Assembly: GCF_030684315.1 (NCBI RefSeq)
Contig: NC_081370.1
Location: forward strand, 47,696,728-47,760,727
Origin: Stegostoma tigrinum
Lineage: Eukaryota
Direction of reading: 5' to 3'
Length of the DNA stretch: 64,000 nucleotides
This document shows, one piece after another, positions 1-61,440 of the stretch (its first letter is position 1; each line of letters begins with the position of its first letter). The translations under genes were made by a program, and so were the position numbers. The notes beneath the pieces are model-generated. The model was not told where the DNA came from and made no database searches. It saw only the letters and a list, made by a program, of their open reading frames with translations.

Positions 1-402
1 TGCCTCCCTAACCTGTCCTTCCTCCCACCTATCCCCTCCTCCCACCTCAAGTCCCACCCCCATCTCCTACCTTCTAAGCTTATCCTGCATTCTAGACCTG
101 TCCATCTATCCCTGGACTGACCTATCTCCACTCTACCTCCCCACCTACACTCACCTCTACTGCGTCCATCCCTGCCTCTTTGACTGGTCTGTCTCCTCTC
201 CACCTATCTTCTCCTCTATCCATCTTCTATCCGCCTCTCTCTCTCTCCCTATTTATTTCAGAACACCCTTCCCCTCCCCCATTTCTGAAGAAGGGTCAAG
301 GCCCAAAACGTCAGCCTTCCTGCTCCTCTGATGCTGCTTGGTCTGCTGTGTTCACCTTGGTATGTCAGATTCTCCAGCAACTGCAGTTCCTGCTATCTCT
401 GA
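1..402 (+). mobile_element. Penelope-like element family A, 3' end / pseudo-LTR (truncated by window start)
   Basis: C/T-rich tract then ttctgaagaagggtcaaggcccaaaacgtcagc...ctccagcaactgcagttcc; colinear with the 3' ends at 4550-4879 and 20430-20760 that follow GIY-YIG coding sequence. Confidence 0.8.
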
Positions 403-517
403 CTCATCATTCAGCATTCAGGTTCTTGTCCCCATTTGTTCTTTTCCTCAATCAGCTGAGGATTGAGCTGGAACATGATAAATTTAATCATCTCTATTGA
501 TCTTCGTCGATATAAAG

Positions 518-1224
518 ATAGAACATAGAACATAGAACATAGAACATTACAGCACAGTACAGGCCCTTCGGCCCTTGATGTTGTGCCGACCTGTCATACC
601 GATCTCAAGCCCATCTAACCTACACTATTCCATGTACGTCCATATGCTTATCCAATGACAACTTAAATGCACCTAAAGTTGGCAAATCTACTACCATTGC
701 AGGCAAAGCGTTCCATTCCCTTAATACTCTCTGAGTAAAGAAACTACCTCTGACATCTGTCCTTTATCTTTCACCCCTCAATTTAAAGCTATGCCCCCTC
801 GTGCTCGCCGTCACCATCCTAGGAAAAAGGCTCTCCCTATCCACCTATCTAACCCGCTGATTATTTTATATGTTTCAATTAAGTCACCTCTCAACCTTCT
901 TCTCTCTAATGAAAACAGCCTCAAGTCCCTCAGCCTTTCCTCATAAGACCTTCCCTCCATACCAGGCAACATCCTAGTAAATCTCCTCTGCACCCTTTCC
1001 AAAGCTTCCACATCCTTCTTATAATGCGGTGACCAGAACTGTACACAATACTCCAAGTGCGGCCGCACCAGAGTTTTGTACAGCTTCACCATAACCTCTT
1101 GGTTCCGGAGCTCGATCCCTCTGTTAATAAAAGCTAAAGCACTGTACGCCTTCTTAACAGCCCTGTCAACCTGGGTGGCAACTTTCAAGGATCTGTGTAC
1201 ATGGACACCGATTTCAAGGATCTG
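518..1224 (-). mobile_element. CR1 LINE, young 5'-truncated copy (RT C-terminus, 3' UTR, microsatellite tail)
   Basis: ORF 811-1245 has LYKTLVRPHLEYCVQFWSP...LERVQRRFTRMLPG...RLRGDLIETYKI; (atagaac)n tail at 518-547; nearly identical to 31871-32550. Confidence 0.95.
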
Positions 1225-2961
1225 GTCCATATTTTCTCGTAACACGGTTTACTAATATATTAGGGACTCCTGCCACATTGAGATGACAACTGAGGTGGCA
1301 GAATATGAATTCCTTATTGGCTGCTTGATACACCCTATTTAATGTGTACATTGTAATTACAAATGGAAACATACACAGAAGTGAAATTGTAACTATACTG
1401 TTAACGAAATTTTAATTTCCACAGCGAGTGACTAGACTGTACCATTCAGTCCTCTGTTAATGATTTTTATTGTAATTACTGCCAGAAGATATTATTCACT
1501 GCTTTATCAGTCTTGAATGGCAAAAAGCCTTGTTAAGCAGGTTGTTATAACTTTTGGAATGGTATGAAATAGGTGATAGCTAACTGATAGTCTATTTTAT
1601 TTCACAACTTTCTCAACTTTTAGTTATCTCAACTGCAGTGGACATATAAACCAGGAGAGATGTAAAATGAGTTTCACTCTCATTGACATTGTTTTCACAC
1701 AATCTCTGAATTTTAAAATTATTCCTGCCTGTGCATCACCTCGAACCGATTTTCCCCTCCACTTCCATTGTACTCAACTCCTTCCTTTGTTTGATTACAG
1801 GAAAACTGGCCCATCCCCTGGATCAACATTTCCATTCCACCCCATCTGACCTGCCTGTAAACCAGACTGATTGCTCTGACATGCAGGCCAGGCCACGGCT
1901 CAATCCCCAGTCTGTAGGATACAGGTACTTGGACCCCGGTAGAGCTAAGTGCCTGACTGACCGCTGGCCCAGTCCCTGGACTGGAATAGAATGAGCACCT
2001 TGACTCTCTGTGGAAATATCCCCTGACTGACTGTAAACTCCCTAGGTCCCAATAAGCATTGGCCCCATTTGTTTTCCCCACATGTCCATATGATTGGAGC
2101 AAGCGCAGTGGGTTGGCCAAATAAACTGCCAGCTGTGATGTTGACGAAATGCAGTTGATTGTTTAGTGCTCCCCATCAATGCAAAGTCCCCTAAAGCTCT
2201 TATAAACAATGCAAACTCCAGAGGCTGTAGCTGAGCGCTGAGGATGCTATGCACTAAGCAATCACTGTAACCCACACAGACCATAGGTCCATACTGAATT
2301 CAGTGAGCATTTGTAATGAAAGCACCGTGTACCACACAGTTTCTGAAGGCCTCCAACTGAATACAAAGTGAGTGAGCATTAAGAGAACAAGCTGAGTGCC
2401 CTTAGAGGCATCTTGTGCAGATGTATGTGATGCATGTGTGTCTCTGCATATGAAGCAGCCGAACAGAAGTGTGCCATTTATATGTGGCTTTTGAAGTGCT
2501 GAAACGATGAAGTAGTGTTTGAGCTGGCATAAGACTAGTGATGTTGATATGGTGTAGCTGGCACTTTGCCAATACCAACATGTGTGGATGAAGGGTCAAA
2601 AATGATGATGGCCATGCAGTGAGTAGCGGTGAAAAAGCAGTTGTATTGTGGTGGAGAAAACATTCATTGAGCCACAGCTGCCAGGCACTGGCAGTAATGT
2701 ACATCAGGAATGTTCACCATCTAATTTCTCAGAGGAGGAAAGGGGAGTTGAAGGTGGCAGCTTAATAAGGCAAGTTGGGGTTTCCATGACATGCAAATAC
2801 GCAGAATTAAGTTAGTCACAACTCAATGGAAAGTTTCTGAACGTTGCCATTTAAGACTTTGAAAGAAAATTGTAAAAAATAACTTAACTATCAAGATTCT
2901 GAATTTTTTTTCATTTTCTCTGCATTTTTCCATCTGTCTCACCATTGCTCACATCATACTT

Positions 2962-58680: not shown

Positions 58681-58839
58681 AGACAGCAAGGTGTAGAGCT
58701 GGGTGAACACAGCAGGCCAAGCAGCATCAGAGGAGCAGGAAGGCTGACGCTTCAGGCCTAGACCCTTTTTCATCTGTGTTCATCCAGCTCTACACCTCGT
58801 TATCTCAGATTCTTCAGCATCTGCAGTTCCTACTATCTC
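58681..58839. mobile_element. Fold-back PLE family A mini-element with 14-bp TSD
   Basis: aggtgtagagctgggtgaacacag inverted to ctgtgttcatccagctctacacct; TSD ccaccaggtccctg 58667-58680 / ccaccaggttcctg 58840-58853. Confidence 0.85.
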
Positions 58840-60219
58840 CCACCAGGTTCCTGCTTTGGTTTGCATGTTGAGTTTTGACAACATCTAGCTCATTTGCTGA
58901 TTATGGTAAGGTAGAAAGCTGGGCCATCAGCGAGGCCATTCACAACCAATAGTCCCCTTAACTGGTAACTCAGCACTGCCTAGGCTATTGTGAAAAACAT
59001 AAAACATATCACAAACAGGCTCCTGTGGCCTCAGTTCAAATCCGACTTGCTCAAGTTGTGTGTAATGACATCTCTGAACTGACTGATGTCAAAAGGTATT
59101 CATGACATCTAAATCAGTCTCAATGCACTTTTTGCCCATTGTTGCCATAGCTCAAACACTCAGACCCCTATAATGATTCCACCCACTATCCAGAATAGGT
59201 GCTAGATCATTTTGAATACAGTGCCTGAGGCAATTAATAAGCACTGTGATAGAGGACAATATATTTTCTGTCCACAAACAATCTGCCTAAACTTTATTTT
59301 CTGTCTTCAATCAAACATATATTCAATGCAGTATTCCTATATTACTCAAGTGAAATAAAATCAATTAAATTACTTGGCGCACAATGTAATTTCACAGATA
59401 AAGCAAGTACTACTTTCATGTGACAACAGCCTCTAGAAAAGATACCTTGTTAAATGTCATCTCATAACTGCACAATGAAAGCCCAAAGGTGATCCTAAGA
59501 TGGAACAAAATGTCACCTTGGGAACAAAATACATGGGAATAATTTGTGATTTAATATGTCTTTATATGGTGCATTTGCTGCATCTGTAAAGAAGAGACTG
59601 TCGAGAATTTTTGAAAGATAATAGCTTTCAATTCATTCATGTATCACTTGATAAATTCCCTCTCTTGTCAAAGCTCATTAATTCAGATCCGTTAATGCAA
59701 AATATTGTGGAATAAAATGAAATATTTATGTATGTAAATAAAAAAGTGACTACTTTTACACATCAAAATACAAACATCTCTTCACTCTGCTTGTGGCTCT
59801 CACCTCATGAAAGACTGGGCTCAATGTTTGGATCCTAGCATTTTTGAACTGGTATGTTACTTGTGTTACTTATGTAATCATTTTGAATGGTTTGAATGGC
59901 AGAAAATATAACCCTGTCCACAACAAAGATGGGATAGAGAAAGTGGGTAATGCTAAGGCCATCAGTGTAGTATCAGTGGTAAAAAAAAATGCTAAACGCT
60001 ATCATTAGGCTGTGATAATGGGGTATTTACAAAATTATAATGTGGTGTGACAGAGCTAACACAGAAATTACGGTTGGCAAATCCTCTAGGAGTTTTTGGA
60101 GACTCTAACTATATATGCAGGAACAAAGATGGCTGAATTTCCAATAGAAATTAATAAGATGTCAAAAAAAGAAAACACATTACACTAAATTAGGTCTCAT
60201 GTGATGGGTGCAATATATT

Positions 60220-61440
60220 TCCATATATTAAACATTGGCTAATGCACAGAAAACAGAGTCTGAGAATGAAGGATAAGTCTCACATTGGCAGGCTGTAACT
60301 AGTGGGATACTGTAAGAATTGATGTCAATGTCAATAATTTTGATGAAAGAATTGAATGTAATCTATCCAAATTCTTTTGCTGATACTGATTTATTACTGA
60401 TGCTAAACTGTAAAAAAGATGTACAGAAACAGAGAAAAAAAAAGACAGTTTGAGTGATTGGGAAATAGATTAGCAGAAATAATATAGCGTGACACGTAAA
60501 GTTATCTACTTTGGTTGGTTGGAAAAATAACAATGAGGAATATTTGAGGTAACAAGGTGTAGAGCTGGATGAACACAGCAGGCCAAGCAGCATCACAGGA
60601 GCAGGAAAGCTGACGTTTTGGGCCTAGGCACTTCTTCAGAAATGGGAACCCTGTAGTCCAATGGTATCAATGTGGACTTCACAAGCTTCAAATCTCCCCT
60701 CCCCTGACCGGATCCCAAAACCAGCCCAGCTTTGTCCCTGCCTCCCTAACTTGTCCTTCCTCCCACTTATCCCCTCCTCCCACCCAAGACCTACGCCCTT
60801 CTCCTACATACTAACCTCATCCCGCCTCCTTGACCTGTCTGTCCTCCCTGGACTGACCTATCCCCTCCCTACCTCCCCACCTACATTCACCTTTACTGGC
60901 TCCATCCCTGCCTCTTTGACAAATCTGTCTCCTCTCTACCTATCTTCTCCTCTGTTGATCTTTTAACATCTTCCCCTCTCTACCTATTTATTTCAGATCC
61001 CCCTTCCCCTCCCCCATTTCTGAAGAAGGGTATAGGCCCGAAACGTCAGCTTTCCTGCTCCTCTGATGCTGCCTGACCTGCTGTGTTCATCCAGCTCCAT
61101 ACCTTGTTATCACAAATATTCCTCATTGTTGTTTTTCCAACCAACCAAAGTCGATAACTTTACCTGTCACACTACATTATTTCTGCTAAGCTATTTCTCA
61201 ATCACTCGAACTGTCTGCTTTTTTTTCTCTGTTTCTGTGCATCTTCCTTATAGTATAGTATCAGTAATAAATTAGTATGACCAAAAAATTTGGATAGATT
61301 ACATTCAATTCTTTCATCAAAATTATTGACATTGACATCAATTCTTGCAGTATCCCACTAGTAACAGCCTACCAATGTGGGAATTATCCTTCATTCCTGC
61401 ACTCTGTTTTCTGTGCATTAACCAATCTTTAATCTATGGA
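60220..61440. repeat. Long inverted repeat, arms 60220-60646 and 61013-61440
   Basis: e.g. aagaattgatgtcaatgtcaataattttgatgaaagaattgaatgtaatctatccaaatt vs its exact reverse complement in the right arm; roughly 90% identity by eye. Confidence 0.95.
60547..61112. mobile_element. PLE family A insertion: inverted terminus + 5'-truncated sense copy
   Basis: Minus terminus 60547-60646; sense GINVDF-encoding end and pseudo-LTR 60643-61112; intact hammerhead core 61020-61047. Confidence 0.88.

Follow-up and report, generated by a model that had tools for sequence, protein, structure and literature searches.

Hammerhead ribozymes in Penelope-like elements

Minimal type I hammerhead ribozymes (min-HHRs) have been known since 2014 from the Penelope-like elements (PLEs) of metazoans (Cervera and de la Pena 2014, PMC4209133; this and the other papers cited are drawn on for parts of their content), and finding the motif class in one more genome is ordinary. 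Here we describe such motifs in a 64,000-nucleotide (nt) stretch of the genome of Stegostoma tigrinum (NC_081370.1, positions 47,696,728 to 47,760,727; hereafter the window), in a random sample of 50 arbitrarily placed stretches that totals 500 kb (564 kb with the window), and in the whole 3.2-Gb genome. What is new is that the 5′ ends of element copies pile up immediately before the ribozyme core and, in the A1 subfamily, often carry an extra G, and that the hammerhead is probably the first structure of a capped transcript.

The motifs resemble the metazoan min-HHRs (PMC4209133) in being of type I, in having both catalytic boxes, an extra nucleotide after position 9 and a G10.1-C11.1 pair, in their loop-less palindromic helix III and their location within the pseudo-long terminal repeat (pLTR), and in occurring mostly as solo truncated copies, with several families per genome. 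They differ in abundance, for 4,000 motifs in coelacanth and 9,000 in Xenopus were called remarkable, compared with about 141,000-157,000 here, although the search methods differ. The family that we call A also has shorter helices than the motifs of Schistosoma mansoni (PMC4209133), with 4 bp in helix II and 2 bp in helix I. The text parts and two supplementary files of that paper that were examined name no chondrichthyan.

The sole biochemically studied system is Poseidon of Anolis carolinensis (Frangieh et al. 2024, PMC11167929), in which reverse transcription starts internally at two sites, uncleaved RNA is the main template, and the ribozyme cleaved only with its protein. As in Poseidon, the hammerhead ribozyme (HHR) of S. 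tigrinum appears to lie slightly upstream of two internal start sites for the reverse transcriptase (RT), which define the tail; both target strands are extended and, as we propose below, uncleaved RNA would be the main template. Unlike Poseidon, family A has a Neptune-type linker, and its main open reading frame (ORF) begins about 166 nt after nucleotide C3 of the ribozyme core, not within stem II. The parts of PMC11167929 that were examined do not map the transcription start or a cap signature.

Structurally, no difference was found from the Neptune-clade PLEs with an endonuclease (EN+ PLEs; Craig et al. 2021, PMC8557442), which share a C-terminal GIY-YIG domain, a CX2-5CxxC linker, partial tandems, an inverted 5′-truncated copy and a tail that is often at one end. 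The function of the HHR in EN+ PLEs is called unclear in that paper. Animal non-LTR retrozymes (PMC7229834; bioRxiv 10.64898/2026.07.22.740005), for which a PLE origin has been proposed, likewise combine a type I HHR with great abundance, as many as 120,000 being reported for axolotl (PMC7229834). They are short tandem repeats, whereas the motifs described here are minimal HHRs in dispersed PLE ends, solo or inverted. We considered a retrozyme identity (short, ORF-less tandem repeats with a type I HHR) and rejected it, the copies in the window and sample being dispersed PLE ends.

Two further precedents bear on the interpretation. An untemplated 5′ G is an accepted trace of the cap in full-length LINE-1 and SVA insertions (PMC4859970); unlike in those cases, the G described below marks a start inside a PLE pLTR, 4 nt before a ribozyme core. 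Dimeric cleavage has been described by Lunse et al. (via the review PMC6765202). A literature search (titles and starts of abstracts, with most subscription papers outside its reach) gave no report of this layout or of a shark PLE hammerhead census, and the parts seen of PMC6155905 and bioRxiv 10.64898/2026.07.22.740005 contain nothing on this layout.

Architecture, abundance and decay of the ribozyme motifs

The motifs are min-HHRs in PLE pLTRs, and they fall into families A, B and a third, C. A preliminary description of the window, made from its letters, had proposed hammerheads in PLE termini; that reading is supported, both by an architecture that agrees with the published min-HHRs (PMC4209133) and by the position of the motifs within pLTRs, on the strand of the ORF. 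The catalytic boxes CUGANGA and GAAA are present, and the NUH triplet at the cut site is GUC in families A and C and GUU in B. Helix III is the expected loop-less palindrome, ACGU, in all four references (A1 and A2 of family A, B and C). Stem II is 4 bp long in A, where it had been described as 3 bp with a 6-nt loop and is in fact 4 bp with a 4-nt loop; it is 5 bp in B and 6 bp in C. Helix I is 2 bp long in A1 and A2, 4 bp in B and 3 bp in C, which bears out the earlier remark that it is weak (about 2 bp) in family A. The unpaired nucleotide between position 9 and stem II is A in families A and B and U in C. G10.1 was found in nearly all matches listed from a search for any two-box motif, which required neither this base nor stem II pairing; the pair-table descriptor for families A, B and C did require the G10.1-C11.1 pair.

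As had been suggested, the families keep both boxes and a paired stem II while differing elsewhere, and helices I and II covary between them. Pair 1 of helix I is T-A in A (62/64) and B (22/26) and A-T in C (18/18); pair 2 is C-G or T-G in A, T-A in B and C-G in C. Pair 2 of stem II is G-C in A and B and T-A in C.

Motif abundance is far above chance. Genome-wide exact counts are 117,779 for family A (control 0), 3,011 for B and 9,113 for C, and any exact two-box motif occurs 156,997 times, against 432 in the control. A strict descriptor gave 22 matches in the 500-kb sample and 0, 0 and 0 in three order-3 Markov controls, which extrapolates to about 141,000 intact motifs genome-wide. Terminal fragments of the elements number 188 in 564 kb, or by extrapolation about 1.07 million in the genome. 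Family C (e.g., L103-L122) is a third, young HHR family, absent from the window; its 9,113 exact copies have a 6-bp stem II and include subfamilies with compensatory changes.

One might ask whether the motif is a chance resemblance, or a promoter or protein-binding element that acts as DNA and has no RNA fold. A search with Rfam models and Infernal, which the preliminary description had put forward as a check, returned nine matches at E<=10 with no hammerhead among them (the best in the window scan being a miRNA model on an inverted PLE pair, under the gathering score), and the motif does overlap the inferred core promoter. Nevertheless, such an explanation is already contradicted because the helices covary: compensatory helix I and II pairs occur across families whose stems have 4, 5 and 6 bp, together with invariant boxes and a NUH triplet, and the strict-descriptor controls were zero. 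We consider it very improbable.

The conservation expected within a family was borne out only between families, as the compensatory helix changes described above. Among dispersed copies, an excess conservation of catalytic bases was looked for and is rejected, since the core bases outside CpG vary approximately like the flanks; decay in these copies is neutral. In 17 of 67 dispersed family A copies G12 has become A, a frequent change because G12 sits in a CpG, and the GAAA-to-AAAA cases noted earlier are explained by the same CpG loss. The ACGU of helix III likewise decays in copies through CpG loss. Young copies with near-identical pLTRs have all catalytic bases intact.

The elements that carry the motifs

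In the window, the core that ends at 22389 lies about 225 nt past a GIY-YIG frame on the same strand. When the genome was searched with the protein of this frame, 292,138 first-look candidates emerged, and 150 of them were scored. Among the sequences recovered, L043 is a full, partial-tandem family A element with a 658-nt direct repeat (99.85% identity), two HHR cores on the same strand at a spacing of 3,796 nt, RT and GIY-YIG domains, and a reading frame with a single break near the N-terminus. The order in family A is RT, then a CX4CX2C linker, then a C-terminal GIY-YIG domain. The definition of Neptune includes a CX2-5CxxC linker, which is common to Nematis (PMC8557442); by its linker, which fits this Neptune/Nematis definition, family A is provisionally classed as a Neptune-type PLE. 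Family B is a relative of A, and family C is more distant. B copies lie approximately 270-325 nt past endonuclease (EN) matches of 31-56% identity, and C copies follow a GIY-YIG-like frame without an evident linker. With positions counted from C3 of the core (C3 = 0), A1 has upstream AUGs at +3 and +46 and its main AUG at +166, so that the main ORF stands behind two short upstream ORFs. A 27-nt tandem repeat lies within the PLE ORF (L043 2193-2487), and its copy number varies between copies.

5′ ends, the extra G and a candidate promoter

Copies of the elements have 5′ ends that pile up directly before C3. In the 564 kb, starts at -5 to -1 account for 28 of 128 family A copies and 19 of 54 family B copies. 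Genome-wide, A1 junctions (counted where all four upstream bases differ from the element) number 3,747 at -4, versus 96-777 at five downstream positions. The base before the junction, tallied by hand on 100 matches listed per position, is G in 76/100 at -4 and in 28/100 at +28 (Fisher p=1e-11). When hand classification retains only unrelated flanks, G precedes 24 of 42 junctions at -4 (p=4e-5 vs 27%). The extra G is found before variable starts (3/3 at -5, 5/6 at -4, 1/1 at -3 and 2/5 at -2). In the DNA run X6, which is possibly from the assembly's own sample, the inserted letters are a single G in 5 of 12 rows listed (199 further rows exist), three before -4 and the others before -2 and +2; these single G's stand between two element-derived sides.

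A TATA-like box is present at -34 in A1, -35 in A2, -33 in B and -46 in C. These properties make it likely, in our judgment, that RNA polymerase II, recruited to a pLTR promoter whose TATA-like box lies at -33 to -35, makes a capped transcript beginning at about -4, with the hammerhead as the first RNA structure. The pLTR was read against the standard TATA and initiator consensus sequences. The inferred start of A1 (L043 1299-1304, -4 to +1) is a C followed by five pyrimidines; it resembles a start of the TCT/5′TOP kind, and the A2 and B starts, with A at -4, we take to be initiator-like. A few family C copies start near -15 to -17.

Three considerations weigh against a capped start. Some of the A1 G's are templated by an inverted arm. 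The enrichment is not reproduced in A2, where the base before -4 is G in 23/100 and A in 67/100 matches listed; many of these A2 rows are A/T-rich palindromic joins. Finally, the Penelope of Drosophila virilis has an internal promoter that lacks a TATA box, and an intron 46 bp past the start (PMC2377424); because it differs, the layout is not universal.

The A2 result also favors another possibility, that the pile-up at -4 with its G derives from a non-autonomous subfamily with a G-starting master copy, or from nucleotide addition by the RT independent of a cap. A G at a fixed position would then be expected to mark the junction, yet G precedes starts at -5, -4, -3 and -2, it is at background before +28, and A1, A2 and B each have a TATA-like box at the spacing that a start there predicts. 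This alternative is improbable, and a capped start is preferred.

An intron ending at helix I, as in a D. virilis-like arrangement, was also considered and is not supported, since copy starts do not accumulate at the AG near -23 and the copies have no upstream exon in common. No splice joints appear in the rows listed for three contig sets from another organism, which are possibly RNA, and for one DNA-like run; starts, ends and strand are not readable from contigs.

A possible footprint of cleavage

The predicted cut in family A lies between +27 and +28. A1 junctions number 160 at +22, 96 at +26, 777 at +28, 375 at +30 and 413 at +36. Palindromic head-to-head joins are concentrated at +28, with 709 cases versus 148 at +12, 53 at +23 and 24 at +55, and the centre of the +28 join is a 4-nt palindrome that begins at +28; a few tandem joins are among the A1 +28 matches listed. 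Restricted to unrelated flanks, the hand-classified estimates become approximately 70 (+22), 28 (+26), 264 (+28), 135 (+30) and 173 (+36). The excess at +28 fits cDNAs that ran off cleaved RNA, and judged from these junctions the chances of that origin are close to even.

A number of observations count against cleavage as the source. With unrelated flanks the +28 class exceeds +30 but is not far above +36, and in the local 564 kb, a small sample, only one of 128 family A copies starts at +28. Family C has no excess at its own cut site, with about 3 of 50 hand-tallied truncations there (100 listed of 390; control 93), a comparison of low power. The +28 palindrome can also result when two cDNAs that stalled at +30, the base of an alternative A1 hairpin, are joined bluntly. 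The minimum-energy fold of A1, as monomer and as dimer, is this inactive hairpin, in which the first catalytic box is paired with the cleavage-site strand (CUGAUG with CGUCAG). Fold z-scores range from 1.15 to -2.61, and only family C folds better than its shuffles (ViennaRNA, with which the active dimer is not scorable).

On this evidence one could argue that the motif of family A is derived from a hammerhead and no longer cleaves, the +28 excess being due to RT stalling or nuclease trimming at the hairpin base together with AGCT microhomology. The 2-bp helix I and the inactive fold agree with this, as does the lack of a cut-site excess among the listed family C rows. In about 14 of 96 rows at +26 (hand count) the hairpin is wholly deleted, from which it can be argued that the hairpin forms in vivo. 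RNA-seq in the anole likewise showed no reads ending at the cut site (PMC11167929). However, with unrelated flanks +28 (about 264) is more frequent than +30 (about 135), the opposite of a stall at +30; moreover, young copies with near-identical pLTRs retain all catalytic bases, and the helix pairs covary in three families. We regard a loss of cleavage in family A as unlikely.

The 12-nt stem-loop II of family A (e.g., window 4794-4805) is itself nearly palindromic, such that two RNAs could form a 12-bp duplex; this duplex shows up in the inactive dimer fold of A1.

3′ ends and head-to-head pairs

The 3′ ends of copies are fixed at two places, about +92 and about +128 past C3. In A1 head-to-head pairs, 19 of 20 combine one long and one short 3′ end, while single ends are long in 46 and short in 42 cases (p=2e-5 for the asymmetry of pairs). 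A tail at one end only has already been described for Neptune-clade PLEs (PMC8557442); the one-long-one-short rule is what is quantified here. Tail-to-tail joints are common in run X6 (L043 1393-1398 joined to 1427-1435). In these, two copies on opposite strands meet, one by its short 3′ end and the other by its long one, which suggests insertion into or beside the element's own tail.

Proposed mechanism

The explanation that best accounts for the observations as a whole, and that we hold to be highly probable, is that min-HHRs lie in the pLTRs of several PLE families, coupled with a likely capped start and a possible assisted cleavage. The pLTR promoter would give a capped RNA starting about 4 nt before the core, and a hammerhead that comes first in the RNA could make do with a helix I of only 2-4 bp. 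The PLE RT would initiate internally at two sites, 65-100 nt past the cut site, one for each target strand, and would often run off the RNA at its capped end, adding a G as the copy of the cap. Such run-off copying would produce the 100-130-bp solo or head-to-head copies and their very high copy number; longer copies would come from read-through of tandem elements.

As for cleavage, it is about an even question, judged from sequence, whether the ribozyme does cleave, and then only when assisted, by pairing into a dimer through ACGU and probably by a PLE protein. Cleavage would take off the leader, some 32 nt long, the cap and the AUG at +3 included, and thereby convert a message into uncapped RNA. 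A minority of cleaved RNAs might still be copied, most genomic copies coming from uncleaved RNA. The likely role would then be decapping or a switch away from translation, not excision of the unit alone. More speculatively, the hammerhead may be a self-decapping switch, formed by the 35 nt at the start of the capped RNA and acting with help from the element's protein, with PLE ends recording the capped state (the extra G at -4) and the cleaved state (the excess of junctions at +28); this stronger form we offer as a tentative possibility.

In the classical model, a read-through transcript is cut by the HHRs of successive pLTRs to release a unit-length RNA, which then circularises and serves as the RT template (PMC4209133). 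The full element does contain a pair of HHRs on the same strand, spaced by 3,796 nt, and copies made from a religated circle would have an uninterrupted cut site, as most do. Because a circle has no 5′ end, it cannot yield the pile-up at -4 with an extra G, and those copies point instead to linear capped RNA. As a general account the classical model is improbable, though it may still hold for long copies.

If the self-decapping reading is correct, the PLE ends, about a million in number, would give a first in vivo indication of the function of PLE hammerheads. With so many ends, junction statistics could stand in for the mapping of RNA ends. A ribozyme at a capped 5′ end would shift the likely job from unit excision to decapping or translational control, and the layout would explain why helix I is so short and why solo motifs are so numerous. 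The role of PLE hammerheads is made directly testable by the cap signature and the possible cut-site footprint, which matters for a field in which the one biochemically studied system gave no cleavage ends by RNA-seq (PMC11167929).

Motif sites and other features of the window

All 12 motif sites named in the preliminary description were located. The four family A cores and the one family B core called intact are exact, and the two near-intact A cores have one substitution each. The four A cores called mutated are all so, two of them (285-312 and 7593-7620, both plus) with only one substitution, 60612-60639 (minus) with two and 58746-58773 (minus) with four. The mutated B copy has two substitutions, one of them the G12-to-A change (GAAA to AAAA), and its flanks allow the suggested helix I. 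Cores that had been overlooked are 19714-19741 (plus) and 7555-7582 (minus) of family A, plus several decayed B copies. In total, 24 terminal fragments were recovered in the window (17 A, 7 B). The features are as follows.

4786-4813, plus: family A1 min-HHR core, intact; predicted cut after 4813
4209-4882, plus: 5′-truncated family A PLE with end of EN domain, pLTR, HHR and short 3′ end (blastn to L043 97.8%; tblastn 4118-4366)
20668-20695, plus: family A1 min-HHR core, intact
20048-20762, plus: 5′-truncated family A PLE arm, short 3′ end
22362-22389, minus: family A1 min-HHR core, intact
22249-23546, minus: 3′ part of family A PLE, long (tailed) 3′ end
22614-23453, minus: 279-aa open frame with CX4CX2C linker and GIY-YIG endonuclease (Neptune-type), Pfam PF01541
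61020-61047, plus: family A2 min-HHR core, intact, at the end of a pLTR fragment (about 60643-61114)
60550-60646, minus: short A2 arm, starting 7 nt upstream of core 60612-60639, whose G12 is CpG-decayed
285-312, plus: A2 core, G12 to A (CpG decay), within pLTR fragment 1-354
5244-5417, both strands: head-to-head pair, plus arm from -4 (near-intact core 5326-5353), minus arm from +36
7489-7721, both strands: head-to-head short copies, both from -2/-1; decayed cores 7555-7582 (minus) and 7593-7620 (plus)
19648-19841, both strands: head-to-head pair, both from -1; cores 19689-19716 (minus, near-intact) and 19714-19741 (plus)
58679-58839, both strands: head-to-head pair; decayed core 58746-58773 (minus), plus arm from +61
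35508-35537, minus: family B min-HHR core, intact; solo copy 35445-35539 starting at -2
19237-19266, plus: family B core, G12 to A and one stem II change; 4-bp helix I possible
17183-19324, both strands: decayed family B PLE with inverted arms (17183-18191 minus, 18307-19324 plus) and RT/EN remnants
56696-56898, both strands: decayed head-to-head family B pair
45928-46462: decayed A tail fragments in a cluster, with one decayed B copy at 46373-46462 (plus)
43935-44004, plus: decayed family B tail fragment

The frame at 22614-23453 matches PF01541 with E=2.9e-4, slightly under the curated cut-off. The arm at 20048-20762 is apparently the inverted partner of that at 22249-23546, with a CR1-type RT fragment near 21949-22344 in between. 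The pair at 7489-7721 has one short and one long 3′ end, and a nested repeat lies near 18892-19046 inside the decayed family B PLE.

Around the A2 insertion, the inverted repeat 60217-60646 / 61013-61443 extends about 330 nt past the PLE ends into apparent host DNA, and this host-flank part is approximately 90% complementary, as if the insertion had inversely duplicated its target flank.

Much of the window consists of RT fragments of CR1-type LINEs (long interspersed nuclear elements), at 811-1248, 30620-31447, 31967-33263, 41831-42283, 44175-44666 and 62852-63322, with an RVT_1 domain match at 32679-33263. A run of 139 N occupies 49213-49351, and minisatellites with periods of about 21, 24 and 71 nt are present at 28123-28360, 37192-37568 and 63300-63642.

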